Shown piece by piece: positions 40,836 through 61,131 of a DNA stretch of 64,000 nucleotides (positions are counted from its first letter, which is position 1; each line of letters opens with the position of its first letter). This DNA is from Tagaea sp. (GTDB lineage: Bacteria > Pseudomonadota > Alphaproteobacteria > CACIAM-22H2): the NCBI GenBank assembly GCA_965279525.1, contig CBDIIB010000002.1:64001-128000 (forward strand), in the 5' to 3' direction. The position numbers were made by a program, and so were the translations under genes. Under the pieces are notes generated by a model. That model saw nothing but the letters and a program-made list of their open reading frames with translations. It ran no database searches and was not told the DNA's origin.

Positions 40836-40871
40836 GGAACGAGAATAGCATCGATTTTCGAAATCCAGATA

Positions 40872-40887
40872 TCTGATCTTAATCAGA
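40872..40887. promoter_or_regulatory. Palindrome with Crp/Fnr-type geometry in an AT-rich divergent promoter region
   Basis: TCTGAT-CTTA-ATCAGA. Confidence 0.45.
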
Positions 40888-40970
40888 AGCTTAAGACGGT
40901 TTTTCTGGTTTTGTTGCAAATAGGTGTGCGGCAGGTTTCACTCGCCCCGCCGCCGAAAAGGACCCCGCCG

Positions 40971-44668: not shown

Positions 44669-44748
44669 GCGGCGGGCATTCTAGTCCGATTGCGCCCGGC
44701 CGCACGATTTGCCAGAGTCCGGGTCCGAGTTTCCAAGGGGTGCCAAAG

Positions 44749-47070
44749 ATGAGTCATTTCGGCAAGGCCCAGACGCCGCGTCGCGTGGAAGATGCCCGCC
44801 TTCTGAAGGGGGCCGGCCGCTATCTCGACGATTTCGTCCTTGCCCGGCAGACCTACGCCGCGTTCGTGCGCAGTCCGCACGGCCATGCCGACATCCGCTC
44901 GATCGACACCGCCGCTGCCATGGCGATGCCCGGCGTGTTCGGCGTGTTCACCGGCGACGATCTCGCCAAGGCCGGCGTGGGCAACGTGCCCTGCATGGCG
45001 CCCCTCAAGAACCGCGACGGCACCACGGTCAAGACACCCGACCGGCCCGCACTTGCACGCGGCCGCGTGCGGTTCGCCGGCGAGGCGGTCGCCCTCGTCG
45101 TCGCCGACACCCCGGAAAACGCGCGCGATGCGGCCGAAGCCGTCGCGATCGACTATGCCCCGCTGCCCGCATCGGGCGACCTGCGCGCCGCGATCCAGCC
45201 CGGCGCCCCGCAGGTGTGGGACCACGTCAAGGGCAACGTCGCGTTCGACTGGGTCATCGGCGACGAGGCCAAGACCAAGGCGCTGTTCGCCAAGGCCGCG
45301 CATGTCGTCGAACTCGACATCGTCAATAACCGCCTCGTGCCCAACTCGATGGAGCCGCGCGGCGCCATCGCCGACTATGCGCGCGGCGAAGACCGCCTGA
45401 CGCTCTATTGCAGCACGCAGGGCGGTTACGGCATGCGCAAGGTGATCGCCGGCGAGATCTTCAAGATCCCCGAGAGCAAGCTGCGCGTCGTCACCGGCGA
45501 TGTCGGCGGCGGTTTCGGCATGAAGATCTTCGTCTTTCCGGAATACGTCGCGTGCCTGCATGCCGCGCGCGTGCTCGAGCGTCCGGTGCGCTGGATTTCC
45601 GACCGCAGCGAGGCGTTCCTTGCCGACACGCACGGGCGCGACAACATCGCCAAGGCGCGCGTCGCGGTCGACGCGAACGGCAAGATGTCGGCAATCCACG
45701 TGTCGACCTACGCCAATCTCGGCGCCTATTGCTCGCAGTACAGCACCTTCGTGGCGACCGGTGCCGGCAATTCGATGCTGGTCGGCGTCTACGCGTTCGA
45801 GGCGGCGATCGCCGAGGTAAAGGGCGTCTATTCGAACACCGCACCCGTTGACGCGTTCCGCGGCGCCGGTCGCCCCGAGGCAAACTATGTCGTCGAGCGG
45901 ATGATCGACGCGGTCGGCAAGAAGCTGGGGATCGCCCCCGACGAGATCCGCCGGCGCAACTTCATCCCGCCCTCGGCGATGCCGTACAAGACGGCGCTGG
46001 GCAACACCTACGACAGCGGCCATTACGTGCAGAATCTCGACGATGCGGTCGCGCGCGCCGACGTGAAGGGCTTCGAGGCGCGCCGCGAGGCGTCCAAGAA
46101 GGCCGGCAAGCTGCGCGGGCTTGGCATCGCGATGTACACCGAGATCTGCGGCGGCGGCGGCGACGAGACGGCGAACATCCAGTTCGACCCGTCGGGCGGG
46201 GCCATCGTCAAGGTCGGCAACCAGTCGAACGGGCAGGGCCACGAGACGGCCTATGCCCAGCTCGTCGCCGAGCATCTCGGCATCCCGATGGACAAGGTGC
46301 GCGTCATCCAGGGCGACACCGACGTGACGATCTACAGCGGCATGACCGGCGGCAGCCGCGCGCTTGCGGTGACGGGTTCGGCCGTGACGCTCGCGGTCAA
46401 GGACGTGATCGCGCGCGGGCGCAAGCTTGCCGCCCACCTGATGGAGGCTGCCGAAGCCGACATCGAGTTCGCCGACGGCACGTTCAAGGTAGCCGGAACC
46501 GACAAGCAGCTGACGGTCAAGGATCTGGCCTACAACGCGCACAACAAGGCCAAGCTGCCGGCCGACCAGCCGGTGGGCCTCCAGGGCGACGGCACGTTCC
46601 TGCCGCCGGGCGCCACGTTCCCGAACGGCTGTCACATCGCCGAGATCGAGATCGATCCGGATACTGGTGCCGTCAGTTTCCAGCGCTACACGATCGTCGA
46701 CGATTTCGGCAACGTGATGAATCCGATGATGCTCGAAGGCCAGGTGCACGGCGGCACGATCCAGGGCATCGGCCAAGCGCTCTACGAGAACTGCGCCTAC
46801 GATCCCGAGACAGGCCAGCTGCTGTCGGGCTCGTACATGGACTATGCGATGCCGCGCGCCGACCGGATGCCGACGATCGACTTCTCGTACAACGAGGTGC
46901 CGTGCAAGAACAACCCGCTGGGCGTCAAGGGTGCGGGCGAAGCGGGCACGATCGGCGCACCGCCGGCGGTCATCCATGCGGTGCTCGACGCGCTGAAGCC
47001 ATATGGTGTGGCGCATATCGACATGCCGGCCACGCCGCAGAAGATCTGGTCGCTGATCCACAAGGCCTGA
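44749..47070 (+). CDS. Xanthine-dehydrogenase-family Mo-binding large subunit (CoxL form II-like)
   Basis: [59 protein letters not shown]. Confidence 0.9.
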
Positions 47071-47074
47071 TCCC

Positions 47075-47989
47075 ATGGCAGCACCGCCCGACCTCGCGGT
47101 TTCGCCGGAGGTCGCGGCGGCGCTGGCGGCGAGCGCTCCGGTGGTGGCGCTCGAATCCACCATCGTCGCGCACGGCATGCCGTGGCCGCGAAATCTGGAA
47201 ACCGCACGGGCGCTGGAGTCCGAAGTGCGCGCGCAAGGTGCCGTCCCGGCGACCATCGCGGTCCTCGACGGGCGGCTATGCGTGGGGCTGGACGCCGCCG
47301 CCCTCGAACGGCTCGCGACCGACAAGGAAATCTCGAAGGTCTCGCGGCGCGATCTCGCGGCCCTCGTCGCGGGGCGCGGCAGCGGTGCCACGACCGTCGC
47401 GGCGACGATGGCGATCGCGGCGATGGCGGGGATCCGGATCTTCGCCACCGGCGGGATTGGCGGCGTGCATCGCGGCGTCGAGGCCACGATGGATGTATCG
47501 GCCGATCTCTACGAGCTTGGCCGCACGCCTGTGGCAGTGGTGTGCGCGGGTGCCAAATCCATCCTCGACATCCCCCGGACACTCGAACTTCTCGAAAGCC
47601 TCGGCGTTCCGGTCCTCGGCTACCGGACTGGCGATTTCCCTGCCTTCTATGCGCGCAGCAGCGGCCGGCCGGTCGACCGGCGCTGCGAGTCCGCCGGCGA
47701 GATCGCCGCATTGCTGGATGCGCAATTCCGCCTGGGTCTCGGTGGCGTATTGGTCGCCAACCCGATCCCGCCCGAACACGCCCTCGACGCGGCTACGATG
47801 GAAGGCACGATCGCCGAGGCGATCCGCGCGGCCGAGGCCGGGGGAATCGGCGGGCAGGCGCTGACGCCTTATCTGCTGGACCGCCTCAATGCGGTCACCA
47901 AAGGCGCAAGTCTTGCGGCGAACATCGCGCTTGCCCGGAACAATGCGCGGCTGGCGGGCGAGATTGCCGCCGCCTTCGCCCGGCTCTAG
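47075..47989 (+). CDS. psuG: Pseudouridine-5'-phosphate glycosidase
   Basis: PVVALESTIVAHGMP, KVSRRD, ATTVA, FATGGIGGVHRG, DVSADL, GAKSILD, TPYLL. Confidence 0.95.
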   Translation: MAAPPDLAVSPEVAAALAASAPVVALESTIVAHGMPWPRNLETARALESEVRAQGAVPATIAVLDGRLCVGLDAAALERLATDKEISKVSRRDLAALVAGRGSGATTVAATMAIAAMAGIRIFATGGIGGVHRGVEATMDVSADLYELGRTPVAVVCAGAKSILDIPRTLELLESLGVPVLGYRTGDFPAFYARSSGRPVDRRCESAGEIAALLDAQFRLGLGGVLVANPIPPEHALDAATMEGTIAEAIRAAEAGGIGGQALTPYLLDRLNAVTKGASLAANIALARNNARLAGEIAAAFARL

Positions 47990-48402
47990 TCGATCTCGAT
48001 CGCACCGCGATTGGCCTTGATCGTCGAGCGGGCTGCCTTCGACGCGAGGCGCCGGCGCTTCGATCCCTTGGACGGACGGGTCGGCTTGCGGGCTTTGGGC
48101 CGGTGCAGGGCCATGCGCAGCAGCGTGGCGAGCTTTTCGAGCGCGTCCTTGCGGTTCATTTCCTGTGTGCGGTGGCGCGAGGCGTCGATCAGCAGCAGGC
48201 TTGCCCCCGACACGCGCCGGCCGGCGATGGTCCGCAGGCGCTCGATGAACTCGGGCGCCACGCGCAGGCGGCCCAGATCGATGCGCAGCTCGACGGCGGT
48301 CGAGACCTTGTTCACGTTCTGGCCACCCGGCCCGCTGGCGCGCACGAAGCGCCAGTCGAGATCGCGGTCGTCAAGGTCGAGTTCGGGAATCACGCGCGGC
48401 AT
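47986..48402 (-). CDS. arfB: Alternative ribosome-rescue peptidyl-tRNA hydrolase
   Basis: RASGPGGQNVNKVSTAV, RTQEMN, basic C-terminal tail RKPTRPSKGSKRRRL. Confidence 0.93.
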   Translation of the reverse strand: MPRVIPELDLDDRDLDWRFVRASGPGGQNVNKVSTAVELRIDLGRLRVAPEFIERLRTIAGRRVSGASLLLIDASRHRTQEMNRKDALEKLATLLRMALHRPKARKPTRPSKGSKRRRLASKAARSTIKANRGAIEID

Positions 48403-48462
48403 GGCTGGCGGCACAGTCGCCCGACTTGCGCCTGCGGGCAAGCGGGTTTAGGAGTGCGGCCC

Positions 48463-49410
48463 ATGTCCGGGGTCTCGTTCGTCTGCACGGTCTACAACAA
48501 GGAGAAGTTCCTGCCCGCGGTGATCGCCGCGATCTGGCGGCAGGTTCCCGACCGTCCGCGCGAATTCATCTTCGTCGACGACGGCAGCCGCGATGGCTCG
48601 GTCGCCATCGTGCGCGAGCTGACGAAGGACTGGCCCAACTGCCGGATCGTCGAGCAGCCCAACGGCGGCCCGTCGTCGTCGACGAACACCGGGATCGGCC
48701 TTGCCACGCAGACCTGGCTGAAGCTCGTCGGCTCGGACGACGTGCTCGCCCCCTACGCCACGCGCCGGCTGATCGAGGTCGCCGAAGCGACGGGTGCCGG
48801 CGGCGTGTTCGCGAAGATCGGCTTCTACCGCGATGAATCCGAAATCCGCTTCGACGAAGCGGCCGCCGACGCGACACAAGCCGTCGTGCCCACCGATGCG
48901 GTCTGCGAAGTGATCCGCCACGGCGTATCGGGCACCTCGCCCACGCTGTTCCTTACCGAAACGGTCAAGCGGGCCGGCGGCTGCGATCCCGACGTGTTCG
49001 TCGAGGATTTTGCACTTGCGCTGCGCGTGGCGCGGCTTGCCCCGATCGCACGCTTCGACCATGTCGTCACGTGGGGACCGGCAGCCGACGAAACGCGCAT
49101 CATGGTCGGCCAGGGCCATCAGGCGCACCACGATTTCGCGCTGGCACTCGTGCATTTCCTGCGTGCACACCCAGAAATGGCGGCGCGTTACGGCCATCTC
49201 GCCTTCCGCCGTGCGGCCGGGCGGGCGTGGAAATACGCGCGCCGGGCGGCGGGGCTCGGCTGGACCTCGCGCTATCCGTGGCTTAACCTGCGCGCCTATT
49301 TCGGTCCGCCCGGCCATCCGGCCGACGCCATCGCGCGCACGATGGATGTCTATGCCCGCGGTGCCGGACCTGCCGCCAAGCCGATCATCCGCGTGGGAGC
49401 CAGGCGTTGA
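48463..49410 (+). CDS. GT2-family glycosyltransferase
   Basis: VSFVCTVYN, FVDDGSRDGS, NGGPSSSTNTG, GSDD, VEDF. AGGAG RBS. Confidence 0.88.
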   Translation: MSGVSFVCTVYNKEKFLPAVIAAIWRQVPDRPREFIFVDDGSRDGSVAIVRELTKDWPNCRIVEQPNGGPSSSTNTGIGLATQTWLKLVGSDDVLAPYATRRLIEVAEATGAGGVFAKIGFYRDESEIRFDEAAADATQAVVPTDAVCEVIRHGVSGTSPTLFLTETVKRAGGCDPDVFVEDFALALRVARLAPIARFDHVVTWGPAADETRIMVGQGHQAHHDFALALVHFLRAHPEMAARYGHLAFRRAAGRAWKYARRAAGLGWTSRYPWLNLRAYFGPPGHPADAIARTMDVYARGAGPAAKPIIRVGARR

Positions 49411-51023
49411 AGCCGCGTTCGCGCCGGGCTCCCGGCATCTTCGCGATCCTGCTGGCGATGGCGTTCGTCAACCAGCTCTTCTCGTCGGGCGATTTCGTCG
49501 AGCAGCGGCTCCAGCTCCTGCCGTCGGCGGTGTCGCTGGAGCTTGTCCTGCTGCTGGTCCTTTTCGCCGTCGTCGCGCGCGAGCCGCGCCCGCCGGAATT
49601 CGCACTCTGGCTTGGCGCGATCGTCGGCCTTGCGGTCTTCGTCCTGCGCGCGCTCGGCATCGCGATCCCGTGGTTCTTCGGCCGCGATCTCAACGTGGCG
49701 GTGGATTCGCGCTTCGTGCCGGTGTTCGTGAAGCTGCTCTACGAGGCGACGCCGCCGGTCGAATTCGGCCTGCTCGTTGCCGGCATGGCGCTCGCACTCC
49801 TGCTGGCGCTGGCTGGCGTACGCGTGGCCCTTGGCACGCTGTGGCGGGCCATGGCGCTGCGCGGCTGGGCGGGACTTGCGCTCGGATTCGCCGCCCTCGT
49901 CGCCGGCTGGTGGACGATGCCGAAGGCGCCGTCCTCGCCCGATCCGCGCCCGCCCGTTTCGGTCGATGCGGGCAGGGCCGTTTTCGCGGCAGCCGATTCG
50001 GTCCTCCGCGCCGAGGGCCTGCGCGGCGAGCATCGGGCCCGGATCGATGCCGCACAGGCAGCATTGCCGGCGCGCAGCGACTTCGCACCACTTGCCGGGC
50101 GCAGCGTCGTGCTGGTCTTCATCGAATCTTACGGGGCCGTGACCGCACGCGAAGCGACCTTTGCCGCAGCGCTCGATCCGCTGCGTGCGCGCCTCGATGC
50201 GAGTCTCGAAACCGCCGGCTTCGCGCGCGCGACCGGCCTGCTGCGCTCGCCGATCACCGGCGGCGGTTCGTGGATGGCACACGGAACGATGCTGGCGGGC
50301 GTACGGCTTGCCGCACAGGACGCCTATGAAGTGATGCTCGTTTCCGACGTGCGCACGCTCGCCCACCGATTCGCGCAGGCCGGCTACCGCACGCTGGCAT
50401 TGATGCCGCGCATCGACCAGCCTTGGCCCGAGGGCAGGCTCCTCGGCTTCGGTACGATCCGCATCCAGCCTGATCTCGAATATCGCGGCCCCCGGTTCGC
50501 GTGGGAGTCGCTGCCCGACCAGTGGGTTCTCGACCGTTTCGCGCGCACCGAGCTGAAGCCGGCCCCGCTCTTTGCCAAGATCGTTCTCGCCTCCAGCCAT
50601 ACGCCGTTCGAACGCATCCCCGCGTTCGTCGAGGACTGGTCGAAGCTCGCTTCGGAACGGGCCTATGACGGCCTGCCGGTCAAGGAATTCCCGGTCCGTC
50701 GCGGACAGGTGTTCGAGCAGGACGAAGCCTATGTCGCCGCCGTCGCCTATTCGCTCGAATCGGCCATCCGCTTCGCCACCGACCGCACCGATGACGACAC
50801 GCTGTTCATCGTGGTGGGCGACCACCAGCCGCCGCTGACGACCGCACGGCGGACAGGCGACTTCTCGGTGCCGATCCATGTATTCTCGCGCGCGTCCGAA
50901 CTGATCGCGCCGTTCATGCGGCGCGGCTATTTGCCGGGCCTGCAACCACCGCCCGGCATCGCCGCACGCGGCATGGAGGACTTCCTGAAGGACTTTCTCG
51001 CGGATTTCGGCGGCGTGCCATGA
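49407..51023 (+). CDS. Membrane-anchored alkaline-phosphatase/sulfatase-superfamily transferase (LtaS/EptA-like)
   Basis: About 5 N-terminal TM segments, then VLVFIESYG, SPITGGGSWMAH, SSHTPF, VVGDHQP, VPIH. Confidence 0.8.
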   Translation: MKPRSRRAPGIFAILLAMAFVNQLFSSGDFVEQRLQLLPSAVSLELVLLLVLFAVVAREPRPPEFALWLGAIVGLAVFVLRALGIAIPWFFGRDLNVAVDSRFVPVFVKLLYEATPPVEFGLLVAGMALALLLALAGVRVALGTLWRAMALRGWAGLALGFAALVAGWWTMPKAPSSPDPRPPVSVDAGRAVFAAADSVLRAEGLRGEHRARIDAAQAALPARSDFAPLAGRSVVLVFIESYGAVTAREATFAAALDPLRARLDASLETAGFARATGLLRSPITGGGSWMAHGTMLAGVRLAAQDAYEVMLVSDVRTLAHRFAQAGYRTLALMPRIDQPWPEGRLLGFGTIRIQPDLEYRGPRFAWESLPDQWVLDRFARTELKPAPLFAKIVLASSHTPFERIPAFVEDWSKLASERAYDGLPVKEFPVRRGQVFEQDEAYVAAVAYSLESAIRFATDRTDDDTLFIVVGDHQPPLTTARRTGDFSVPIHVFSRASELIAPFMRRGYLPGLQPPPGIAARGMEDFLKDFLADFGGVP

Positions 51024-52492
51024 ACCGGGCCACCGGCCACTCGCAGACCACGCTGGTCAGCGGCGCGCTTCTTGTCACGGCGCAGGCTATCCTCAATCTC
51101 GACATGGCGGGTTCGGTCGTCGCGTTCGCGGCCTTCCTGCTCCTGTGGTTCGCCGTCCGCTTCGGTCTTGCCGACCATCCGCACGACCGCTTCGGTGCCG
51201 CGAACGCGCTGACCTACGCCCGCGCGACATTCGTGTGCCTGCTCGCCGGCATCGCCTGCGGGCAGGTGCCCGACGCGCAAGGCCGGTGGATCCTGGTCAC
51301 GGCGGGCGTCGTTGTCCTGGCGCTCGACGGCGTCGACGGGCTGCTCGCTCGACGGCAGGGTCTGGCCTCGCGCTTCGGTGCCCGGTTCGACATGGAAGCG
51401 GACGCCGCCTTCATGCTCGTCCTGTCGATCCTTGCCGCCCGCGTCGGCGACGCGGGGCTCTGGGTCCTGGCGCTCGGCCTGCCGCGCTATCTCTTTGTCG
51501 CCGCCGGCTGGCGCTATCCCTTTCTTGCCGCGGCCCTGCCGCACAGCGAACGGCGGCGCATCGTCTGCGTCGTGCAGGGTCTGGCCTTGCTGGCGGCACT
51601 TGCCCCGTTCGAAGGTGCCGGCATCGCCGCCGCGACGGGGCTTGCCGCCCTGCTCTGGTCGTTCGCGGTCGACTGCCTCTGGCTCTGGCGCAATGCCGCA
51701 AGCCGCGAACCCGAGCCGGTCGCCGGCCGGATCGCCGGCCTGTTCGGCCTGGCTCGCTCGCTCGCCGTCTATTACGGCATCCCGGGCCGGGCGGCACAGC
51801 TCGACCGGTTCTATGGCGCGTTCGTGCACGAAGGCGGGTTGGCCTTCGATGTCGGCGCCCATGTCGGCAACCGGGTCGCGAGCTGGCGGCGGCTCGGCAG
51901 CCGCGTCGTCGCCATCGAACCGCAACCGCGATATGCCGATCTGCTGCGCCGGATATTCGTCGATGATCCGGCCGTGCGCGTGGATGAAGTGCTGCTCGAC
52001 GCCACGCAAGGCACCGTCGCCCTGCACCTGAGCGACCGCCATCCCACGCTGGCGACCGCGAGCGCCGATTTCATGCGCGACGTGCGCGGGGCCCGCGCGT
52101 TCGATTCCGTCGCCTGGAACCGGTCGATCCCGGTCGCGGCGACGACGCTCGACGCGCTGATCGCGCGCGAAGGCCTGCCCGATTTCGTCAAGATCGACGT
52201 CGAAGGTGCCGAGGCGCGCGTGCTTGCCGGCCTGAGCCAGCCGGTTCCGGCCCTGTCGTTCGAGTATGTGCCGGCGGCGAAGTCGGCGGCACTTGCCTGC
52301 ATCGACCGGATCGCGGCACTGGGCGACTACCGTTTCAACCGCTCGACCGGTGAAAGCCACCGTCTGGAACTCGACGAATGGGCCGACGCGCGCACGATGC
52401 GCGCGTGGCTGGCCGCCCTCACGCCGGATGAGGCGTCGGGCGACGTCTATGCCGAATGGCAAGCACGTCGCGATGGCCCACGCGCAAGCTGA
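51020..52492 (+). CDS. Fusion of CDP-alcohol phosphatidyltransferase and FkbM-family methyltransferase
   Basis: N-half: ANALT and DGVDGLLARRQGLASRFGARFDMEAD. C-half: FDVGAHVG, VAIEPQP, TTLD, KIDVEGAE. Confidence 0.85.
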   Translation: MNRATGHSQTTLVSGALLVTAQAILNLDMAGSVVAFAAFLLLWFAVRFGLADHPHDRFGAANALTYARATFVCLLAGIACGQVPDAQGRWILVTAGVVVLALDGVDGLLARRQGLASRFGARFDMEADAAFMLVLSILAARVGDAGLWVLALGLPRYLFVAAGWRYPFLAAALPHSERRRIVCVVQGLALLAALAPFEGAGIAAATGLAALLWSFAVDCLWLWRNAASREPEPVAGRIAGLFGLARSLAVYYGIPGRAAQLDRFYGAFVHEGGLAFDVGAHVGNRVASWRRLGSRVVAIEPQPRYADLLRRIFVDDPAVRVDEVLLDATQGTVALHLSDRHPTLATASADFMRDVRGARAFDSVAWNRSIPVAATTLDALIAREGLPDFVKIDVEGAEARVLAGLSQPVPALSFEYVPAAKSAALACIDRIAALGDYRFNRSTGESHRLELDEWADARTMRAWLAALTPDEASGDVYAEWQARRDGPRAS

Positions 52493-53183
52493 GCCCGCCG
52501 CGCGCGATCTGCGACCGGCGCGCACGTAGCCAGGCATCCAGGTCGAGCGACGGTTCCTGCTCGACGGCAGCCTGCGCGATGCCCTCGACGAGGGCCGCCA
52601 GCAATTCACGATCGCCGACAAGCCAGTCGGATCGCTCGATCGTCACGCGATAGCCGGCACGCGCGGCGATCCGCGCGAATGCGAACGGCGCCTGTGCGCC
52701 GAGTGCGGGGCCGAGGCCCTTTACCCGGCGCTGGTGTCGCGCGAACGCGCCGAGGACCGCGCCGTCCAGCGCATGCGGCACGGAGAATTCGTGGCGGCCA
52801 TCCACGGCCAGATGCATCAGCAGCGGCCGGCCACGCGCATGGCGCACGAGCCGGGCAAGCCACGCGAGGCCCGCAAGATCGATGAGGGCCGTCGAGACAT
52901 AGGCGTCCGCCTGCGGGAACCGGCCGCCGAGCGAGCGGCGGCATTTGCGCACGCGGGGGGCGAGCGACAGGAGGCGCGCATCGCCGTCGACAAGTGTCCA
53001 GTGCATGCCCTTGGGCAGCAGCGGACCGAGCCAGCCGGTCAACGCACCGCGTCCGGCACCTAGATCGACGACGTGCGCACGCGGCTTCAGGGTGCCGGCA
53101 AATCGCATCGCAAGCCTGCGGCTACGCGCGGCTGCATCCGCACCGGCCCGCAAGGCCAGCCAGTCGGCGGAGAAGCCGGTCAT
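52419..53183 (-). CDS. Class I SAM-dependent methyltransferase-like protein
   Basis: FSADWLALRAGADAAARS, VVDLGAGRG, WTLVDGD, ALIDL, HQRR..GLGPALG. ATGA overlap with the GT4 gene. Confidence 0.8.
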   Translation of the reverse strand: MTGFSADWLALRAGADAAARSRRLAMRFAGTLKPRAHVVDLGAGRGALTGWLGPLLPKGMHWTLVDGDARLLSLAPRVRKCRRSLGGRFPQADAYVSTALIDLAGLAWLARLVRHARGRPLLMHLAVDGRHEFSVPHALDGAVLGAFARHQRRVKGLGPALGAQAPFAFARIAARAGYRVTIERSDWLVGDRELLAALVEGIAQAAVEQEPSLDLDAWLRARRSQIARGGLSLRVGHRDVLAIRHRRRPTPHPA

Positions 53184-54199
53184 GGTGCGAACTCTTCGAT
53201 CGCCGCCCAGAGCCGGTTTGCTTGCATGCGCCAGTCGGGGAAGCGGAGTGCCGAGGCATTGCGGGCATATAGTCGTCCGGCCGGACCGAGCAGCCGGCGC
53301 AGCGCCCGGGCGAGTGCTGCCGGATCGGCGGGCCGTACCAGCAGCCCGGCGCGCGGCGGAACGACGAGCGGGACCGCACCGGCGCGCACGCCCGCGACGG
53401 GCAGTCCGTGGGCAAGTGCTTCGGCGAATGCCATCCCGTAGCCTTCGTGACGTGAGGCAAGCGCGAACACCGATGCCGCGCGGTAGTAGCTGGCGAGGCC
53501 CGCCATGTCGGTCTCGCCGGCAAGCCGGACGCGCCGGCCAAGGCCGAGGCCGCGGATGTCGGCGCGCACGCCGGCAGCACAGTGCGGGTCGCGGGTCGTC
53601 GAGCCGACGCACAGGCTTGTCCAGCGCAAGTCGCGCAGTCGGGCGAGCGCGCGCAGCAGCGTCCGGTGGTCCTTGCGTGGCGTCAGCGTGGCGACCGTCA
53701 GGATCGTCGGCGGGCGCCGGCGCGCTCTGGGGCGGCGGGCCGCATCGGTACCGGGATCGACCGCGCGGATGCGGGCGGCATCGAGACCCATGGCACCTAG
53801 ATCCTGCACGGTCGCAAGGCTCGTGGCGACGATACCGTCGAGCCGGCGCAGCATCGTTGCCTCGCGCGCGAGAAGGGTGCGCGAAGCGGCTAGTGCCAGC
53901 CCGGTTTCGAGGCCAAGCGGGTGGTGGACGAGGGCGATCGAATTTGCGACCGGCAGCAGATCGGCGAAGGCCGGCAGGGCGAGACCATCGATTAGCAGCG
54001 TCTCGCCCGACCTGCGTCGGGCAAGGCACGCGCGCGCGGCGGCGCTTGCGGCGTCATCGGCATCTGGGTAGCGGCCGGGAAGTTCCTCGAGCGCCACGTC
54101 ATGGCCCGCGGCCCGCCACTCGCCGAGCATGCGCGCGGCGTAGCGGTAGCCGCCGGTCGCCTGATCGATGCGCCCGGGCACGATCAGGCGCAACTTCAC
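53180..54199 (-). CDS. GT4-family glycosyltransferase
   Basis: ATGGYRY, IDGLA, LVHHPL, VATLTPRKDH, EGYGMAFAEALAHGLPV (Ex7E). GTGA overlap with the PTPS-family gene. Confidence 0.9.
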   Translation of the reverse strand: MKLRLIVPGRIDQATGGYRYAARMLGEWRAAGHDVALEELPGRYPDADDAASAAARACLARRRSGETLLIDGLALPAFADLLPVANSIALVHHPLGLETGLALAASRTLLAREATMLRRLDGIVATSLATVQDLGAMGLDAARIRAVDPGTDAARRPRARRRPPTILTVATLTPRKDHRTLLRALARLRDLRWTSLCVGSTTRDPHCAAGVRADIRGLGLGRRVRLAGETDMAGLASYYRAASVFALASRHEGYGMAFAEALAHGLPVAGVRAGAVPLVVPPRAGLLVRPADPAALARALRRLLGPAGRLYARNASALRFPDWRMQANRLWAAIEEFAP

Positions 54200-54600
54200 G
54201 GCAGGTCGGCCTCGTAGGCAGCCCAGGCGACGGGTGACTCGCGCAAGAGGACCTTCATGCTCGCGTAGACGCTTGCGGTCGCGGGCCCGAGCGAGTCCGC
54301 GGCGACCTTCCCCTTCAGCAGCTCGAAGATCAGCCCGGCGAGGAACTCGGTCGTCGTGTTGGTTCCCTTGAGTGGCTCGACATCGTCGAGATTGCGGTAG
54401 TCGAGCTCGTCGAGTGCTGCGCGCAGCGTGCGGCGCATCAGCCCGATATCGACGATCAGACCGTCGGCGTCGAGGCGCTTGCGGCGCAGTTCCCACTCGA
54501 CCACGAATGTGGCGCCGTGAACGCGCTGGGCCGGCCCGAAGATCTCGCCCTTGAAGGAATGGGCGACCATGATGTGGTCCTGGACGGTAAGGCTGTACAT
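54196..54600 (-). CDS. 6-pyruvoyl-tetrahydropterin synthase (COG0720) family protein, non-QueD subfamily
   Basis: HIMVAHSF, FGPAQRVHGATF, VDIG, YRNLDD, NTTTEFLA, LRESP. No CxxxHGH or ExxHGH motif. Confidence 0.88.
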   Translation of the reverse strand: MYSLTVQDHIMVAHSFKGEIFGPAQRVHGATFVVEWELRRKRLDADGLIVDIGLMRRTLRAALDELDYRNLDDVEPLKGTNTTTEFLAGLIFELLKGKVAADSLGPATASVYASMKVLLRESPVAWAAYEADLP

Positions 54601-54604
54601 TTTT

Positions 54605-55561
54605 CTATCCGTACGAAACGAGGGGAAGGGGCGAAGCGTCGGGTGCCGCGAGCAATCCGGCGTAGCGCTGCGGCAACTCGGCGAACGGCACCGGCGTGCC
54701 GAGGTCGATGCGGTTGGCCGGATCGGCAAGCAGGCGGAGTGCGAGAGCCAGCCGTGCCGAATGGCTGCGCGTGGCGCGCCGGGCCGGGCTGACCGATCCC
54801 ACCTGCGATGCCGAAAGCGTGAGACGGCGCGAATGGAACGCGCCGCCGAGCGCGACGGGCACTTCGCGCGTCCCGTACCAGGAAAGCTCGACGACCGTCG
54901 CCTCGAAACCTGCAAGGCCAATCGCGCGCTCGAGACCGGCCGCCGTGCCCGAGCAATGGAATACGAGATCGCAGTCGCCCGCACTTTCCGCCGCGACGTT
55001 CGCGCGCGCGCGCGCGGCGGGCGAGGGATCGATCCCGGCAAGCTCGATCCCCGGTGTTGCGGCAAGAAGGCGGGTCAGGCACAGGCCGACCGCACCCAAG
55101 CCGACGACGGCGACACGGTCGCCGACGCGCGGCGGATGGTCCCACAGCGCGTTGATCGCCGTCTCGAAATGGGCCGCGAGCGGAACGGCCGTGTCGGGGA
55201 CGCCGTCGGATACGGGCATCGCCGCTGCCGCAGGAACATCGAACAGGTCCTGGTGCGGGTGGAGCGCGAACACGCGCGTGCCCGCCGCATGCCCTTCACC
55301 GGCCACAACGATGCCGGAAGCGCAGTAGCCGTACTTGACCGGGAAGGCGAAGGAGCCGTTCTGGAACGGGGCGCGCATGCGGGCATGCTCGCCCGGCGGG
55401 ACGGCGCCCTCGAACACCAGCCGCTCGGTGCCGCGGCTGATGCCGGAGTATCGCGTCCGGATGCGGACATGGCCCGGTGCAAGCGGTCCCAGCTCGGTCT
55501 CGCGCAGTTCGCAGCGCCCGGCTCCCGAGATCCAGAAGGCGTGCGCGCGGTCAGTCGCCAA
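54605..55561 (-). CDS. MDR-family dehydrogenase lacking the usual catalytic-Zn ligands
   Basis: SGISRGTE, FPVKYGY, HPHQ, ETAINALWD, VVGLGAVG, ELSWYG, FHSRRL, SQVG. TTG start inferred. Confidence 0.85.
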   Translation of the reverse strand: MATDRAHAFWISGAGRCELRETELGPLAPGHVRIRTRYSGISRGTERLVFEGAVPPGEHARMRAPFQNGSFAFPVKYGYCASGIVVAGEGHAAGTRVFALHPHQDLFDVPAAAAMPVSDGVPDTAVPLAAHFETAINALWDHPPRVGDRVAVVGLGAVGLCLTRLLAATPGIELAGIDPSPAARARANVAAESAGDCDLVFHCSGTAAGLERAIGLAGFEATVVELSWYGTREVPVALGGAFHSRRLTLSASQVGSVSPARRATRSHSARLALALRLLADPANRIDLGTPVPFAELPQRYAGLLAAPDASPLPLVSYG

Positions 55562-56414
55562 GGCGGCACTCGAACAGCGTGTCGGCGCCCAGCGCGAAAC
55601 GGCGCGTGGGCGGGCGCAGGGCATCGTCGAGCCGGTCGATCGGCGGCAATGCGATCGACGGCCGGCCGGAGCCGATCACCATCGGTGCCACGGCGAGCTG
55701 CAGGCGGTCGACGCGCCCGGACGTCATGAAATGCGACACCGTCCGTCCGCCGCCTTCGACGAGTGCCAGGCGCACGCCGCGCGCATAGAGGGCGTCGAGA
55801 AGGGCGTCGAGATCCATCGCATCGCCCTTGCGCGGGACGAGCAGAGTTTCGGCGCCGTCCACCAAATCGCCGGCCTGACAGCGCGCCAGCAGCGTGGGGG
55901 CCCGGCCGTCGGTAAAGACCTTGCGCCCGGCGGGTGCACGCGCGTCGGGATCGACGACGACGCGAAGACGCGTCGTGCCCTCGCAGCGCCGCACGGTGAG
56001 CTGCGGATCGTCGAGGGCGACCGTACCGGCCCCCACGATCACCGCATCGGCGAGGGCGCGCACGCGATGCAGATGGAGGAGGGCGGCCTCGCAGTTGACG
56101 TAGTGCGAATGACCCGAGAGCGTGGCGATACGCCCGTCGAGGCTCTGGCCAAGCAGGGCCACGACCATCGTGCGCTTCGCACTCGCGCGCGCCGCGACGA
56201 GCGGCAGGAAAATCTCGAAAACGCTTTCGGCGTCGGGCGTGTACTTGCCTGCGCATTGCCAGCCGCCATCCTTCGCCAGCGCCAGCGGGCCGGCGCGGCC
56301 ATCGGGCGTTCCGGCAGCAAGCAGCTGACGCACGAGATTCCACGCATCCGTCCCGTCGATCGTTCGCGGGGCCGAGCGGATCGTGACCTGTGTCGGGGCA
56401 GAGCCGTCTTGCAT
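55551..56414 (-). CDS. Stand-alone RibD C-terminal (pyrimidine reductase) domain protein
   Basis: GQSLDGRIAT, HRVRALADAVIVGAGTV..DDPQLTVR, LVEGGG, APMVIGSG. No HAE/PCxxC deaminase domain. Start uncertain. Confidence 0.87.
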   Translation of the reverse strand: MQDGSAPTQVTIRSAPRTIDGTDAWNLVRQLLAAGTPDGRAGPLALAKDGGWQCAGKYTPDAESVFEIFLPLVAARASAKRTMVVALLGQSLDGRIATLSGHSHYVNCEAALLHLHRVRALADAVIVGAGTVALDDPQLTVRRCEGTTRLRVVVDPDARAPAGRKVFTDGRAPTLLARCQAGDLVDGAETLLVPRKGDAMDLDALLDALYARGVRLALVEGGGRTVSHFMTSGRVDRLQLAVAPMVIGSGRPSIALPPIDRLDDALRPPTRRFALGADTLFECRLGD

Positions 56415-56430
56415 GGGATGGGTCAATCTA

Positions 56431-56628
56431 TCACAACGGGCCGCCGGCCCCCCAGCGCAGCAGCCGGCCGGCCGGCGGGACCCACGCGATGCCCGCCACC
56501 AGATAGAAGACAAGATCGATTGCCCAGTGACCGGGCAGCATCCCGCCGAGCGTGACCGCCAGCGCGACATAGGCGGCCAGGAACGCGAGGATGGCGAGAA
56601 AACCGAGTGCCGATCGGGTGCTTGGCAT
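56431..56628 (-). CDS. Small two-TM membrane protein (DUF2842-like)
   Basis: R..LG..AIL.FL..Y, HWAIDLVFYLVAGIAWVPP. Confidence 0.65.
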   Translation of the reverse strand: MPSTRSALGFLAILAFLAAYVALAVTLGGMLPGHWAIDLVFYLVAGIAWVPPAGRLLRWGAGGPL

Positions 56629-56657
56629 GGCGCATATAAATGTTACGAATGCTGGAA

Positions 56658-57488
56658 ATGTCCAGCCCGAACGGTCCCCTTTCCGTCTACTACGACCGGC
56701 TTTCGCGTTACGGCGCGTGGGCGCGCCTGTTCGGGGGCGATGGCGGCTATGCCCGGGCGACGGTTCACCGTCTGTTGCGCAGCGACGACCCCGAAGTGGT
56801 GCCGGCCGAAGTCATACATTCACGCATTGCCGCACATGTTGCGGCTGCTCCGTCGGCCCGCGTCCTCGATGCCGGCTGTGGCCTTGGCGGCACCTGCTTC
56901 CATTTCGCCCGCAGGTTCGGGTCCGTCTGCGAAGGTCTGACCTTGTCGCCGACCCAGGCCGCACGCGCGACCCGGATGGCCGAGGCTCTGGGACTCTCGG
57001 CAAGCTGCCGATTCCGGGTGGCGAGCTACGACGATCCGCTGCCGGATGGTGCCTACGACCTGATTGTCGCGATCGAATCGCTGGCCCATTCGCCCGACCC
57101 GGCCCGCAGTCTTGCCAACCTCGCGCGCAGCCTTGCGCCCGGCGGTCGTGTCGTCGTCGTCGACGACGTACGCGAGATCGGGGCGGACATCGGCGATGCG
57201 GCGCGCTTCATGGCCGGCTGGCAGGCACCTGGATTCATCGACCATGCGCGGTGGCTGGCTGCCTTCGAAGCGGCTGGATTGCGCGTGGCCGCTGAGGAAG
57301 ACCTCACCGCGCGCGTCCCTGTCCGGCCGGTCGCCGCGCGCGAGACGCTGCTGGCGCTCAACCGGATCGTCTCACTGGTTCCGCATTCGGGCCTGCGCGG
57401 CGTGCTTGCCTCGCATCAAGGCGGACTGGCACTCGAACGGCTCTATTCGGCGGGCGGGGCCTCCTACCGCCTGTTCGTGGCGGTATAG
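56658..57488 (+). CDS. Class I SAM-dependent methyltransferase (sterol/tocopherol/CFA-like)
   Basis: VYYD, RVLDAGCGLGGT, GLTLSPTQ, YDLIVAIESLAH, LAPGG. Confidence 0.85.
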   Translation: MSSPNGPLSVYYDRLSRYGAWARLFGGDGGYARATVHRLLRSDDPEVVPAEVIHSRIAAHVAAAPSARVLDAGCGLGGTCFHFARRFGSVCEGLTLSPTQAARATRMAEALGLSASCRFRVASYDDPLPDGAYDLIVAIESLAHSPDPARSLANLARSLAPGGRVVVVDDVREIGADIGDAARFMAGWQAPGFIDHARWLAAFEAAGLRVAAEEDLTARVPVRPVAARETLLALNRIVSLVPHSGLRGVLASHQGGLALERLYSAGGASYRLFVAV

Positions 57489-57495
57489 TGCGGCC

Positions 57496-57789
57496 ATGCC
57501 GATTCGCGAGTCCCGCCCGCAGATGCAGTCCGCCGAGACGGTCGCGATCCAGGCGCTCGGCTGGATTGCCGGCGACGAAGAACGGCTGGGCCGCTTCATG
57601 GGGCTTGCCGGCCTTTCGGTCGACGAGCTGCGCGCGCGCGCCGGCGATCCGGAGTTCCTCGGCGGCGTGCTCGACTTCGTGCTGGAGAACGAGGCGCTGC
57701 TGGTCGAGTTCGCCGAAAGCGCCGGATTGAAGCCCGAGGCCGTGCTGCGCCTGCGCCGGCAACTGCCGGGCGCGCCCGTGTGGGAATGA
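57496..57789 (+). CDS. DUF3572-like protein
   Basis: AETVAIQALGWIA, RFMGLAGL, FLGGVLDFVL, LPG. Confidence 0.8.
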   Translation: MPIRESRPQMQSAETVAIQALGWIAGDEERLGRFMGLAGLSVDELRARAGDPEFLGGVLDFVLENEALLVEFAESAGLKPEAVLRLRRQLPGAPVWE

Positions 57790-60275
57790 ACGCGCCGCTG
57801 CCCATCGACGCGGTCCTCGGCGAGCTTTGTGCCGCACTCGCAAAGCGGCCCAACGCGGTTCTCGAAGCCCCGCCCGGGGCGGGCAAGACGACCAAGGTGC
57901 CGCTGGCGCTGCTCGACGCCGAATGGACGAAGGGGCGCAAGATCCTGGTGCTCGAGCCGCGGCGCATCGCCGCGCGCGCGGCGGCCCGGCGCATGGCGCA
58001 GATGCTGGGCGAGAATGTCGGCGAGACGGTGGGCTATCGCGTGCGCCTCGACAGCCGCGTGGGGCCTTCGACACGCATCGAGGCGGTGACCGACGGAATC
58101 TTCGCGCGCCGCATCCAGCGCGATCCCGCACTCGAGGATGTTGCGGTCGTGGTGTTCGACGAGTTCCACGAGCGTGGCCTTGAAAGCGATCTGGGGCTGG
58201 CGCTGGCGCTCGACTCGCAGGCCAATCTGCGGCCCGACCTGCGCCTTCTCGTGATGTCGGCGACACTCGACGGTATCGCGGTCGCGAGGCTATTGGGCGA
58301 TGCGGCCGTCGTGTCGTCGCAGGGGCGTGCCTTTCCCGTGGGCGTCGAATGGCAGGAGCGGCCGGAATTGCGCGACGTCGTCGATGCGACCGCACGCACG
58401 GTCCGCCGCGCACTTGCTGCAGGGCCCGGCGACGCGCTCGTCTTCCTGCCCGGCGTGGCCGAGATCCGGCGCACGGCAGAACGCCTTGACGGCCTTGGCG
58501 GCGATGTCGACGTGATGCCGCTCTATGGCGACCTGCCGGCCGAGGTGCAGGACCGCGCAATCCGGCCGAGCGTGCCGGGCCGGCGCAAGATCGTGCTCGC
58601 GACGTCGATCGCCGAGACGTCGCTGACGATCGACGGTGTCACGATCGTCGTCGATAGCGGCCTGAAGCGTGCACCGCGCTTCGATCCGCGCAGCGGCATG
58701 TCGCGGCTGGAGACAGTCCGCGTGAGCCAGGCTTCCGCCGAGCAGCGCCGCGGGCGCGCGGGCCGGTTGGGACCGGGCACGTGCTGGCGCCTGTGGGGCG
58801 AAGCCGAGCACCGCCAGCTTGCCCTTTTCGACCGGCCGGAGATCGCCGAAGCGGATCTGGCACCGCTCGCCCTCGAACTAGCGGCCTGGGGGATCGCCGA
58901 TCCCGCGACGCTCGCACTGCTGGATCCGCCGCCGGCCGCTTCCTTCGCGCAGGCGCGCTCCCTGCTTGCCGATCTGGGCGCCATCGATGTCGGTGCGCGC
59001 ATCACGCCGCACGGACGCGCGATGGCCGATCTTGCCGCCCATCCGCGCCTAGCCCACATGATGCTGGCGGCGAAGGCACAGGGCCGGGCCGGTCTCGCGG
59101 CCGACATTGCCGCCCTCGTCGAAGAGCGCGACATCCTGCGCGGCTGCCGCGAGGCGGACATGCGCCTGCGTCTCGAGATCCTGCGGCGCGATTCCGAGAG
59201 CCGCCTTCCGCCGGGCGCGAGCATTGACCGGGGTGCCGTCGCACGCGTGCGCGAGGCGGCGCGCGTCTGGCGCCGGCGGCTCGACGTCAAGGGCGAGGAT
59301 GGGCTTTCGGCCGCCGGCTCGGTGCTCGCTTTCGCCTATCCCGATCGCATCGGCAGGCGACGGTCGGGTACCAATGCCAGCTTTCTGCTGTCGAACGGGC
59401 GGGGCGCCTTCTTCGCGGCACCCGAACCGATCGCGGCGGAAGACTGGATCGTCGCCGCGGAACTCGACGGCGGCGCACGCGAGGCGCGCATCTTCTCGGC
59501 ACTGCCGGTGACGCGCGCGGAAATCGAAGCCGACTTCGCCGATCGCATCGTGCGCGAACGGATCGTCGAGTGGGACGCGCGTACCGAGGCGATCGTCGCG
59601 GTCGAGCGCCGGCGGCTCGGCGCCCTGCTGATCGAGGAACGCCCGGCAAAGGATCTCGGTAACGACGAACGACAGGCCGCGATGATCGCCGGCATCCGCG
59701 CGATGGGCCTCGCCTGCCTGCCCTGGACGAAGGCCGGCGAGATGCTGCGCCAGCGCGTGTCGCTGCTGCGCCGCGTCGCGGGCGAATCCTGGCCCGACTG
59801 GTCGGACGAAGCCCTGCTGGCAACGCTCGGGACGTGGCTGGCCCCGTTCCTCGGCAAGGCATCGCGCCGCGCGCATCTTGCCGATCTCGACATCGGCGAC
59901 GCGTTGCTTGCAAGCCTCGACTGGGCGCAGCGAAAGGCGCTCGACACGCTTGCCCCCACGCATGTCGAAGTGCCGACTGGCAACCGCATCGCGCTCGATT
60001 ATTCCGTCGATCCGCCGGTGCTCGCCGTCCGCTTGCAGGAGATGTTCGGATGCCGCGACACGCCGGCACTTGCAGGCGGCAAGGTACGGGTAGTCCTGCA
60101 TCTGCTCAGTCCCGCCCGCCGGCCCGTGCAGGTGACGCAGGATCTGGCCGGATTCTGGCGCGGCACCTACAAGGACGTGAAGCGCGACCTCAAGGGCCAG
60201 TATCCAAGGCATGTCTGGCCCGACGATCCGCTTGTCGCGACACCGACGGCGCGCGCCAAGCCGCGGGGGACGTGA
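57786..60275 (+). CDS. hrpB: ATP-dependent RNA helicase HrpB
   Basis: APPGAGKTT, EPRRIAA, DEFHER, MSAT, ATSIAETSLTIDG, QRRGRAGR, C-terminal LLSPARRPVQVTQDLAGFW...YPRHVWPDDP. Confidence 0.96.
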   Translation: MNAPLPIDAVLGELCAALAKRPNAVLEAPPGAGKTTKVPLALLDAEWTKGRKILVLEPRRIAARAAARRMAQMLGENVGETVGYRVRLDSRVGPSTRIEAVTDGIFARRIQRDPALEDVAVVVFDEFHERGLESDLGLALALDSQANLRPDLRLLVMSATLDGIAVARLLGDAAVVSSQGRAFPVGVEWQERPELRDVVDATARTVRRALAAGPGDALVFLPGVAEIRRTAERLDGLGGDVDVMPLYGDLPAEVQDRAIRPSVPGRRKIVLATSIAETSLTIDGVTIVVDSGLKRAPRFDPRSGMSRLETVRVSQASAEQRRGRAGRLGPGTCWRLWGEAEHRQLALFDRPEIAEADLAPLALELAAWGIADPATLALLDPPPAASFAQARSLLADLGAIDVGARITPHGRAMADLAAHPRLAHMMLAAKAQGRAGLAADIAALVEERDILRGCREADMRLRLEILRRDSESRLPPGASIDRGAVARVREAARVWRRRLDVKGEDGLSAAGSVLAFAYPDRIGRRRSGTNASFLLSNGRGAFFAAPEPIAAEDWIVAAELDGGAREARIFSALPVTRAEIEADFADRIVRERIVEWDARTEAIVAVERRRLGALLIEERPAKDLGNDERQAAMIAGIRAMGLACLPWTKAGEMLRQRVSLLRRVAGESWPDWSDEALLATLGTWLAPFLGKASRRAHLADLDIGDALLASLDWAQRKALDTLAPTHVEVPTGNRIALDYSVDPPVLAVRLQEMFGCRDTPALAGGKVRVVLHLLSPARRPVQVTQDLAGFWRGTYKDVKRDLKGQYPRHVWPDDPLVATPTARAKPRGT

Positions 60276-61075
60276 TGCTGGCCGAGATGCTGCTCTACCG
60301 GCTCACGCGCGCGGAACCTTGGGCCGATGCGCTTGGATATCGCGAGGGTGCCGTGCGGCTCTGGTCGCGCCATGGCCGCTGCAAGCGGGCATGGGCGCCG
60401 CACCTTGAGAACACGCGGCGGATTGTCGCCGAAGCCGCGCACGCGGCACCCGGCAGGCGGACCGCTTTGGTCTTCGGCTCGGGCCTGCTTGCCGACCTGC
60501 CGCTCGATGTCCTGGTCGCGAAATTCGAGAGGATCGTTCTGGTCGATGTCGTGCACTTGCCGACGGTGCGCTGGCGCACGCGGCGGCTGGCGAATGTCGA
60601 GCATGTCGTCGCCGACCTGTCGGGCGTTGCACGCGGGCTTGCGGCCGGGCCTTCCGGCATGCCGCCCGACCCGGGAAGCGATTTCGGACTCGACGACGGT
60701 TCTGTCGATTTCGTCGTTTCGCTCAATCTCGCCTCCCAACTACCGATCGCCCCTGTCGACTGGCTGGAGCATCGCCGTGGCTGGACCGAGGCGGCGGCAG
60801 CGGCCTATGGCGGCCGGATCGTTGCCGCGCATTTCGCGCATCTGCAGGGCTTTCGGGCACCGGTCTGCGTGATCGCGGACCGGTCGCGCATCTATCTCGA
60901 CCGGGACGGCCGGACAATCGAGACCGACGACGCGCTTTGCGGGTTCGTGCCGCCCCCGGCCGACGCCAATTGGGACTGGGACCTGGCGCCGCTGGGCGAG
61001 CACGACCGGAACTATGCGATCCGCAACCGCGTGTTTGCCATTCGAGAGCTGCGCGATCTCCATACAATCGTGTAA
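60275..61075 (+). CDS. Hypothetical protein with SAM-methyltransferase-like motifs
   Basis: TGATG coupling to hrpB. ALVFGSG (motif I-like), IVLVD, ADLSG, DFVVSLNLASQL. Confidence 0.7.
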   Translation: MLAEMLLYRLTRAEPWADALGYREGAVRLWSRHGRCKRAWAPHLENTRRIVAEAAHAAPGRRTALVFGSGLLADLPLDVLVAKFERIVLVDVVHLPTVRWRTRRLANVEHVVADLSGVARGLAAGPSGMPPDPGSDFGLDDGSVDFVVSLNLASQLPIAPVDWLEHRRGWTEAAAAAYGGRIVAAHFAHLQGFRAPVCVIADRSRIYLDRDGRTIETDDALCGFVPPPADANWDWDLAPLGEHDRNYAIRNRVFAIRELRDLHTIV

Positions 61076-61131
61076 ATTCACCGAGTCGCTTCGATTCGGC
61101 GGTCGTCATGTCCGCCTCCGGGAGATTCGGG

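Follow-up and report, generated by a model that had tools for sequence, protein, structure and literature searches.

A PTPS-IV locus of Tagaea sp. and the modular design of a proposed envelope pathway

PTPS-IV is a named subfamily of COG0720, recognized by an FGPAQ signature and by a genomic neighborhood featuring RibA and RibD_C (PMC5445326, available portions). Its Streptomyces coelicolor member, SCO6650, has a solved structure (PDB 3D7J), yet neither an established product of PTPS-IV nor the modular design described below was found in the literature searched, within which subscription papers were largely out of reach. The available part of one review carries an unpublished remark that PTPS-IV serves archaeal F420 synthesis (PMC5041015), the corresponding part of a 2026 review credits the third S. 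coelicolor RibA with a new function unconnected to flavin synthesis (PMC13151069), and the accessible sections of PMC8305020 contain nothing on the subfamily. Here, we analyze a PTPS-IV locus of the alphaproteobacterium Tagaea sp. (assembly GCA_965279525.1, 97% complete), located at positions 48463 to 57488 of a 64,000-nucleotide stretch of contig CBDIIB010000002.1 (hereafter, the window).

The locus is a real and intact copy of this known but unsolved PTPS-IV cluster, in a lipid-relay form that carries a lineage-specific fusion of a CDP-alcohol phosphatidyltransferase with an FkbM methyltransferase. All the genes named in a sequence-only reading of the window were recovered intact and open, in the order and on the strands it had given, and its description of two translationally coupled, convergent operons was borne out: intergenic distances are -4 and -4 nt in the plus-strand operon and -11, +4, -4 and -4 nt in the minus-strand operon, and the convergent operons share a 74-nt overlap at their 3' ends. 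The FGPAQxxHGAT-type motif that it had pointed out is present as FGPAQRVHGAT, at residues 21-31 of the PTPS-IV protein. With modest confidence, we propose that the locus makes a diffusible compound derived from guanosine triphosphate (GTP), here termed X, glycosylates it and relays it via a phospholipid to a polymer of the envelope.

Co-distribution of the modules and their alternatives

The distribution of the cluster was profiled genome-wide in a single class, using one draw of 301 same-class genomes that includes the genome under study, with other phyla represented by individual loci. In this sample PTPS-IV occurs in 32 genomes, or about one in ten, the membrane-anchored transferase of the locus in 17 and its CDP-alcohol phosphatidyltransferase subfamily (hereafter CDP) in 16. 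Co-occurrence of the two operons had been named beforehand as a test of the sequence-only reading, and it was observed throughout: all 16 genomes with CDP also harbor PTPS-IV and the transferase, even in three cases where the genes lie far apart. At the genome level the operons are linked far beyond chance, though often not by adjacency; among genomes with all three genes, CDP is found near nine of the 15 other PTPS loci and the transferase near four. A similar association is seen in metagenomes, where 17 of the 46 transferase loci outside the close clade exceed 7 kb and contain CDP in 15 cases and PTPS-IV in 13.

PTPS-IV genomes lacking these membrane enzymes follow a second pattern. A family 2 glycosyltransferase (GT2) of the OpgH type lies near PTPS in nine of 16 such genomes, against none of the 15 others. 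These proteins, here called OpgH-A, form their own clade (support 100/100, 20 rows) and were called at a score of at least 491 bits, the next match scoring 355 bits. OpgH-A was identified in 14 of the 301 genomes, all of which are PTPS-IV-positive and none of which has CDP or the transferase. The 32 PTPS-IV genomes therefore divide into 16 with the lipid relay (11 families), 14 with OpgH-A (nine families), two with neither and none with both, whereas none of the 269 PTPS-IV-negative genomes has OpgH-A, CDP or a complete output. Since no family in the class sample held both output types, the pattern was also assessed at the family level, in 201 genomes from the family of G304 (labeled Paracoccaceae), where PTPS-IV is present in 18 genomes, the transferase in 32 and both in eight. 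Each of the ten PTPS-IV-positive, transferase-negative genomes has OpgH-A beside PTPS-IV, and across both samples none of the 49 transferase genomes contains OpgH-A anywhere. No CDP or transferase match was found in five further genomes with OpgH loci, for which completeness is not given and no positive control is available. At the locus level, CDP, the transferase and opgG are all absent from the 26 OpgH-A loci, while 21 other OpgH loci present CDP in 19 cases, the transferase in 18 and opgG in 16 (two of these 21 rows represent one and the same locus, and another is a broken OpgH-A assigned on its score). Within the family sample, opgG lies at 14 of the 32 transferase loci, and 31 of those 32 genomes encode an ordinary OpgH.

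The input of the pathway appears to be exchangeable as well. On annotated Dinoroseobacter and Paracoccus plasmids, CDP, the transferase, a family 4 glycosyltransferase (GT4) and cytochrome b561 are retained, and an ABC transporter replaces the RibD, medium-chain dehydrogenase/reductase (MDR) and PTPS genes. The binding protein of this importer belongs to the NMT1/THI5 family, and its nearest solved relative is the formyl-aminopyrimidine binder 3IX1 (E 4e-8). The importer is present at 18 of the 24 transferase loci of PTPS-negative genomes, versus one of eight in PTPS-positive genomes (Fisher 0.003, overstated by kinship); RibD, MDR and PTPS-IV are found at none of those 24 loci, and neither is the methyltransferase of the synthesis block. 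The importer binding-protein subfamily occurs in 24 of the 201 family-sample genomes, 19 times at transferase loci. In the other five, the importer stands together with GT4 and OpgH-A (three genomes), OpgH-A is encoded elsewhere (one) or the genome has an ordinary OpgH (one). With the importer seen alongside either the transferase or OpgH-A, all four combinations of input and output occur.

The gene shared by these arrangements is that for GT4 (53180..54199, minus strand; PF00534 and PF13692 in the window protein). GT4 is retained with either input and either output, acting as the hinge of the system: it is present at all 31 other PTPS loci, at all 26 OpgH-A loci and at 13 of 18 importer loci, four of the remaining five being cut off where the retrieved DNA ends. 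In a quick tree, importer-linked GT4s nest among the synthesis-linked ones.

Together, these results point to a two-input, two-output design, with strictly either-or outputs and a make-or-import swap at the input, which orders the pathway without recourse to biochemistry. The swaps place the synthesis block first, yielding a soluble, transportable X, followed by GT4 and, last, by the envelope module, and they imply that methylation precedes glycosylation and that the end product resides in the envelope. We consider this modular order quite probable. It preserves the outline of the mechanism put forward in the sequence-only reading (a GTP-derived compound, a lipid carrier and transfer to the envelope) with three amendments, two of which arise here. 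The lipid relay is but one of two exclusive outputs, 14 of the 16 other PTPS-IV genomes being of the OpgH type, and the cytoplasmic enzymes, which had been read as one pathway, fall into two parts: a ring-building block, for which an importer can substitute, and GT4, which is retained.

This distribution also bears on the possibility that PTPS-IV serves the synthesis of a cofactor (F420, riboflavin or folate) and that the envelope genes are incidental neighbors. Such a role would agree with the unpublished archaeal remark (available part of PMC5041015), with the riboflavin-type enzymes of the neighborhood (PMC5445326, available portions) and with the detection of CofG in seven of the 32 PTPS-IV genomes, the only genomes in which it was counted. 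It is very improbable, however, given that a dedicated envelope output accompanies PTPS-IV in 30 of 32 genomes and a complete one is found in none of the 269 others, and that the genome under study encodes a bifunctional RibD, RibA and FolE elsewhere. F420 synthesis as the general role of PTPS-IV was rejected: CofG (TIGR03550) was not found in 25 of the 32 genomes, that of Tagaea sp. included, by a search that was positive in four of 14 controls.

Two further genes recur across these loci and are missing from the window locus. Cytochrome b561 is seen in all four architectures (23 of 32 transferase loci and 11 of 26 OpgH-A loci), and a YceI-domain gene recurs beside MDR or CDP genes, as at L129:6463-7083 and at about 20 other loci (22 BLAST rows).

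Enzymes of the synthesis block and the identity of X

The PTPS-IV protein (54196..54600, minus strand) is the single PF01242 match in the genome. It aligns with SCO6650 over 131 of 134 residues (E 3.6e-38), its closest relatives (75-98% identical) stem mostly from Tagaea or related alphaproteobacteria, and H14, H28, E85 and E121 are kept in 103-104 of 104 sequences. The protein departs from the motifs of QueD/PTPS-I, -II and -III (CxxxHGH, CxxxxxHGH and ExxHGH; available part of PMC5041015), reading QRVHGAT with no cysteine and HGA in place of HGH, and its QueD score of 46 bits falls below the cut-off of 89. The catalytic cysteine and the third histidine of the PTPS/QueD motif are thus missing, while the T-fold retains a glutamate aligned with the TxE motif of PTPS and QueD. 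We take this glutamate to have a ring-binding role. As the sole PTPS-family match is PTPS-IV, no QueD was found in this genome for de novo queuosine synthesis.

RibD_C (55551..56414, minus strand; PF01872, E 1.6e-35) lies two genes upstream of PTPS-IV, and RibA, which accompanies PTPS at 12 of the 31 other loci, is here encoded away from the locus. The most likely start of RibD_C is the ATG at 56414, because the upstream extension shows a non-coding codon-position pattern of GC content. In contrast to a bifunctional RibD, which has a deaminase domain and Lys152, the protein consists of the reductase domain alone and has leucine at the position equivalent to E. coli Lys152, a lysine that the separate bifunctional RibD of this genome retains. 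Lysine is absent at this position in all 78 RibD_C rows (His 27, Gln 18, Arg 15, Leu 11, other 7; the count contains a few wrong first matches), and the best PDB matches are the archaeal reductases 6P8C and 2AZN. The equivalent residue of yeast RIB7 determines that enzyme's preference for the diamino substrate (PMC3631187, available part). These features suggest that RibD_C probably reduces the undeaminated diamino-pyrimidine (DAROPP/DARPP).

The MDR-fold NAD(P)-dependent dehydrogenase (54605..55561, minus strand), whose start is most likely the TTG at 55561 on account of its overlap with the RibD stop, has Ser42 where zinc MDRs have cysteine, and S42, G154, G156 and G159 are invariant. A family search yielded a weak BchC-like match and the single sequence had no match in the PDB, whereas the family profile retrieved RspB and sorbitol, galactitol-1-phosphate, idonate and xylitol dehydrogenases among general alcohol dehydrogenases, making a polyol (ribityl) dehydrogenase the probable assignment. 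The last enzyme of the block (52419..53183, minus strand), which has no Pfam match, adopts the fold of class I S-adenosylmethionine-dependent methyltransferases (best Z 18.0, root-mean-square deviation [rmsd] 3.4, 223 residues aligned), in agreement with its atlas neighbors; D40, G44 and G46 are invariant, and the fold search gave no clue to its substrate.

These assignments can be arranged into a route. The housekeeping GTP cyclohydrolase II would provide the ring-opened diamino-pyrimidine ribotide, which RibD_C would reduce to the ribityl form with no deamination. MDR would then oxidize a ribityl hydroxyl, most simply at C2', and the ring would close to a dihydroneopterin-type pterin. PTPS-IV may bind the 2-amino-4-oxo ring and either close it or remodel the side chain, and the adjacent methyltransferase would complete X, from which GT4 would form an X-glycoside. 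Other bacteria would import X, bypassing all the steps that precede GT4. Reduction followed by C2' oxidation amounts to an Amadori step, so that ring closure would give dihydroneopterin phosphate, as in Chlamydia, where RibA and TrpF set the precedent for a RibA-derived dihydroneopterin phosphate (PMC4161248, available part). A pterin is accordingly the structure we would name for X, at slightly less than even confidence.

The same modular design could operate with an X that is not a pterin, such as an uncyclized or differently cyclized ribityl-aminopyrimidine of lumazine-like or azapteridine-like type, with MDR catalyzing an epimerase step or acting on the sugar. The closest solved relative of the importer binds a monocyclic pyrimidine, PTPS-IV lacks the catalytic cysteine and third histidine, and FolE is present in the genome, all of which would fit. 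Against this stand the TxE-aligned glutamate of PTPS-IV, to which we presume the ring binds, and the precedented ring closure of the Amadori product, and we regard a non-pterin X as rather unlikely.

At eight loci, mostly from Acetobacteraceae and several beside flagellar genes, RibD, MDR and PTPS-IV form a three-gene block that is possibly the minimal ring-building unit. The Tagaea genome also encodes, away from the window (L055, G000:C4:900893-904315), another and divergent protein with a GTP cyclohydrolase II domain; it adjoins a conserved gene, and the two presumably resemble the URC1/URC4 pair of uracil catabolism.

The envelope module and its proposed acceptor

The transferase (49407..51023, plus strand) had been described as LtaS/EptA-like, and its predicted model (predicted local distance difference test score 91.9), with four predicted transmembrane segments, upholds this assignment, with which its probable catalytic residue set would agree. 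The model has the sulfatase fold and matches LtaS best (Z 21.6, rmsd 3.8, 267 residues aligned), followed by LtaP (21.4), GacH (20.1) and EptC (19.0), the best sulfatase scoring 18.2. By sequence, it retrieved nothing significant from the PDB, its sugar-transporter matches being hydrophobic noise. When the window protein is aligned with 83 of its 120 listed matches, E240, S288, H398, D472 and H473 are invariant across all 84 rows. Motif order makes their equivalence to the LtaS residues probable, and Ser288 is the likely nucleophile. We rejected a formylglycine sulfatase. Such enzymes carry a C/S-x-P-x-R motif at the nucleophile, whereas the invariant serine lies here within GGGSWMAH and the Pfam Sulfatase score of 20.1 bits is below the cut-off of 25. 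We therefore annotate the protein as a putative membrane-anchored phospho-headgroup transferase of the LtaS/OpgB/GacH/EptA type.

The adjoining fusion gene (51020..52492, plus strand) encodes a CDP-alcohol phosphatidyltransferase (about residues 1-227) and an FkbM methyltransferase (about residues 235-490), with PF01066 and PF05050 above cut-off. CDP-alcohol phosphotransferases are marked by a DxxDGxxAR...GxxxDxxxD motif in a membrane domain; here PF01066 scores 51.4 bits against a cut-off of 22, and DGxDGxxAR...GxxxDxxxD is intact and conserved. PgsA was rejected as an identity, as TIGR00560 gives no match to the window protein and scores a homolog at 43.8 against a cut-off of 109.1. The two domains are fused in 19 rows (the window, its close clade and L017) and encoded by separate genes at 12 other loci. 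FkbM is missing next to the CDP domain at one close-clade locus (L014:5946-7304), which makes the fused methyltransferase seem dispensable.

Downstream of GT4, the CDP-alcohol transferase would add phosphatidyl to the X-glycoside from CDP-diacylglycerol, FkbM would O-methylate it and a flippase would expose the lipid, after which the LtaS/OpgB-type enzyme would transfer phospho-glycosyl-X to a periplasmic acceptor. The donor is likely to be CDP-diacylglycerol, because no nucleotidyltransferase was seen among the recurring neighbors scanned and LtaS-type enzymes use phospholipids. In the alternative output, an OpgH-type synthase would replace the lipid steps, probably by extending the X-glycoside into glucan. 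A flippase-family gene is present at 29 of the 32 family-sample transferase loci. OpgB and OpgE decorate periplasmic glucans (PMC10514313, available part), and by analogy such a glucan is the likely acceptor where opgGH exist; in Tagaea sp., the acceptor would be another glycan, possibly made by the GT2 enzyme of the locus.

The phosphatidyl-X lipid might itself be the end product, a new head group that the LtaS-fold enzyme recycles or removes with no polymer being decorated. In two Streptomyces plasmids the transferase lies 70-290 kb from PTPS-IV, no known glucan system was found in the Tagaea genome and sulfatases trail LtaS by only about 3 Z units, all of which would suit a free lipid. We consider it improbable, nonetheless, because CDP and the transferase co-occur in 16 of 16 genomes and give way together to a glucan synthase, and because opgG or opgH flank many transferase loci; both findings favor a glycan-bound product.

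Several observations weigh against the relay of a GTP-derived X to an envelope polymer as proposed here. We infer the activities, the metabolite and the lipid of the pathway alike, product chemistry included, and the genomes compared are related by descent, so that P values are overstated. At the input, arginine (15 of 78) or histidine (27 of 78) at the Lys152 position might still select the deaminated substrate, and FolE makes a second route to plain neopterin look redundant. The flippase and RibA genes are not at this locus, three and two family matches, respectively, lying elsewhere in the genome, and the eight three-gene loci have no GT4 or methyltransferase nearby. The importer is missing from six of the 24 transferase-positive, PTPS-negative genomes, G373 has both inputs and G054 carries the transferase without the other genes. 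In G054, and in the genomes that have CDP and the transferase with neither input, the locus may have decayed or a third input may operate. PTPS-IV is accompanied by neither output in G177 and G288. Periplasmic glucan was rejected as the acceptor in the Tagaea genome, which has no OpgH, OpgG or GH94 match (OpgG was searched with PF04349, E. coli control positive), and ten of the 17 class-sample transferase genomes, this one included, lack any OpgH match, so glucan is not the universal acceptor.

The genomes of G177 and G288 (1.4-1.6 Mb; L140 and L137, respectively) encode the whole synthesis block together with RibA and a creatininase-like gene, and they may release X. A more speculative extension of the proposed relay, which we find doubtful, holds that many bacteria tether a redox-active pterin glycoside to periplasmic glycans, through phosphatidyl-glycosyl-pterin and an LtaS-type relay or through a pterin-primed OpgH glucan synthase. 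The precursor would be shared by way of the importer, and b561 and YceI proteins would keep the tethered cofactor reduced as a periplasmic redox buffer.

Lineage-restricted genes and comparison with known systems

The sequence-only reading had also counted the GT2 enzyme and a divergent methyltransferase among the members of the locus; both prove to be lineage-restricted, and their membership in the cluster, like that of a DUF2842 gene, is unproven. The soluble GT2 (48463..49410, plus strand; PF00535, E 7e-23) overlaps the transferase gene by 4 nt. Fifteen of 16 genomes from the genus encode a close ortholog, whereas 25 other family genomes yielded a single 33% match and the plasmids searched none; in this lineage, GT2 could be the enzyme that makes the acceptor. 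An apparent co-loss of GT2 with the cluster in the same-genus genome G535 was discarded as an argument for membership, the contig ending inside RibD at an assembly gap. The DUF2842 gene (56431..56628, minus strand; PF11003, E 1.4e-15), which encodes a small membrane protein of 65 residues between RibD and the divergent methyltransferase, had been overlooked, leaving the earlier gene list incomplete; it is present at 14 of 16 close-clade loci and at none of 36 other PTPS loci. The divergent class I methyltransferase (56640..57488, plus strand; PF08241, E 1.5e-16) is a lineage-restricted accessory, found beside the cluster at 14 of 16 close-clade loci, at L017 and in G264; the rest of the 31 class-sample PTPS loci lack it.

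No Rfam match was obtained within window positions 47000-59000, and promoter and terminator scores across the locus were at or below shuffle level. Upstream, positions 40065-47989 hold an indigoidine synthase A-like gene together with what we take to be FdrA/DUF1116-like genes and a molybdoenzyme large subunit, a block that suggests nucleobase catabolism and is followed by arfB on the minus strand. On the other side, the open reading frame (ORF) at 60278-61072 has no Pfam or NCBIfam match, that at 60937-61752 is presumably Sel1/SPOR-like, and that at 62379-63245, in DNA of lower GC content, seems to us to resemble PelA-type glycoside hydrolases.

If the proposed pathway is correct, both a phospholipid head group and a glycan substituent would be new, and a metabolite would be cross-fed. 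The importer binding protein, as a bait for its ligand, natural importer-only strains and the phospholipid and periplasmic glucan fractions all offer handles on the product.

Among described systems, the window locus shares with the SCO6650 neighborhood the FGPAQ signature, a strong match and, of the RibA/RibD_C neighbors, RibD_C, and with a Streptomyces plasmid locus the same order of CDP, MDR, PTPS, GT4 and methyltransferase genes. It differs from the SCO6650 neighborhood in having no dedicated RibA, creatininase-like or flippase gene and in carrying the CDP-FkbM fusion, an adjoining LtaS-fold transferase, GT2 and a second methyltransferase. Like LtaS, GacH, OpgB and EptA, its transferase combines an N-terminal membrane domain with an alkaline-phosphatase-fold domain and, judged by motif order, probably shares their glutamate, hydroxyl nucleophile, histidine and Asp-His pair. 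It is, however, only 10-19% identical to them and has serine where LtaS and EptA use threonine. Its pairing with a CDP-alcohol transferase of its own hints at a specialized donor lipid in place of phosphatidylglycerol or phosphatidylethanolamine.

The resemblance to the OpgGH glucan system with OpgB/OpgE lies in the opgG and ordinary opgH genes that flank many transferase loci and in the OpgH family of the alternative output. Unlike that system, OpgH-A constitutes a separate clade with no opgG at its 26 loci and is confined, among the genomes searched, to those with PTPS-IV or the importer, and the Tagaea genome matches neither opgG nor opgH. Known bacterial pterins include cyanobacterial pterin glycosides and Agrobacterium 2'-O-methylmonapterin, which a 2026 pterin review (PMC13259868, available part) presents as soluble and made via the FolE route, adding that no system for pterin efflux is known. 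The proposed X would likewise be GTP-derived and glycosylated or methylated, but it would enter through RibA and RibD_C and exit into a lipid or a glucan. As in Chlamydia, a pterin ring would arise from the product of GTP cyclohydrolase II; there a single isomerase suffices, whereas here a reductase, a dehydrogenase and a T-fold protein would act in turn, and not for folate.

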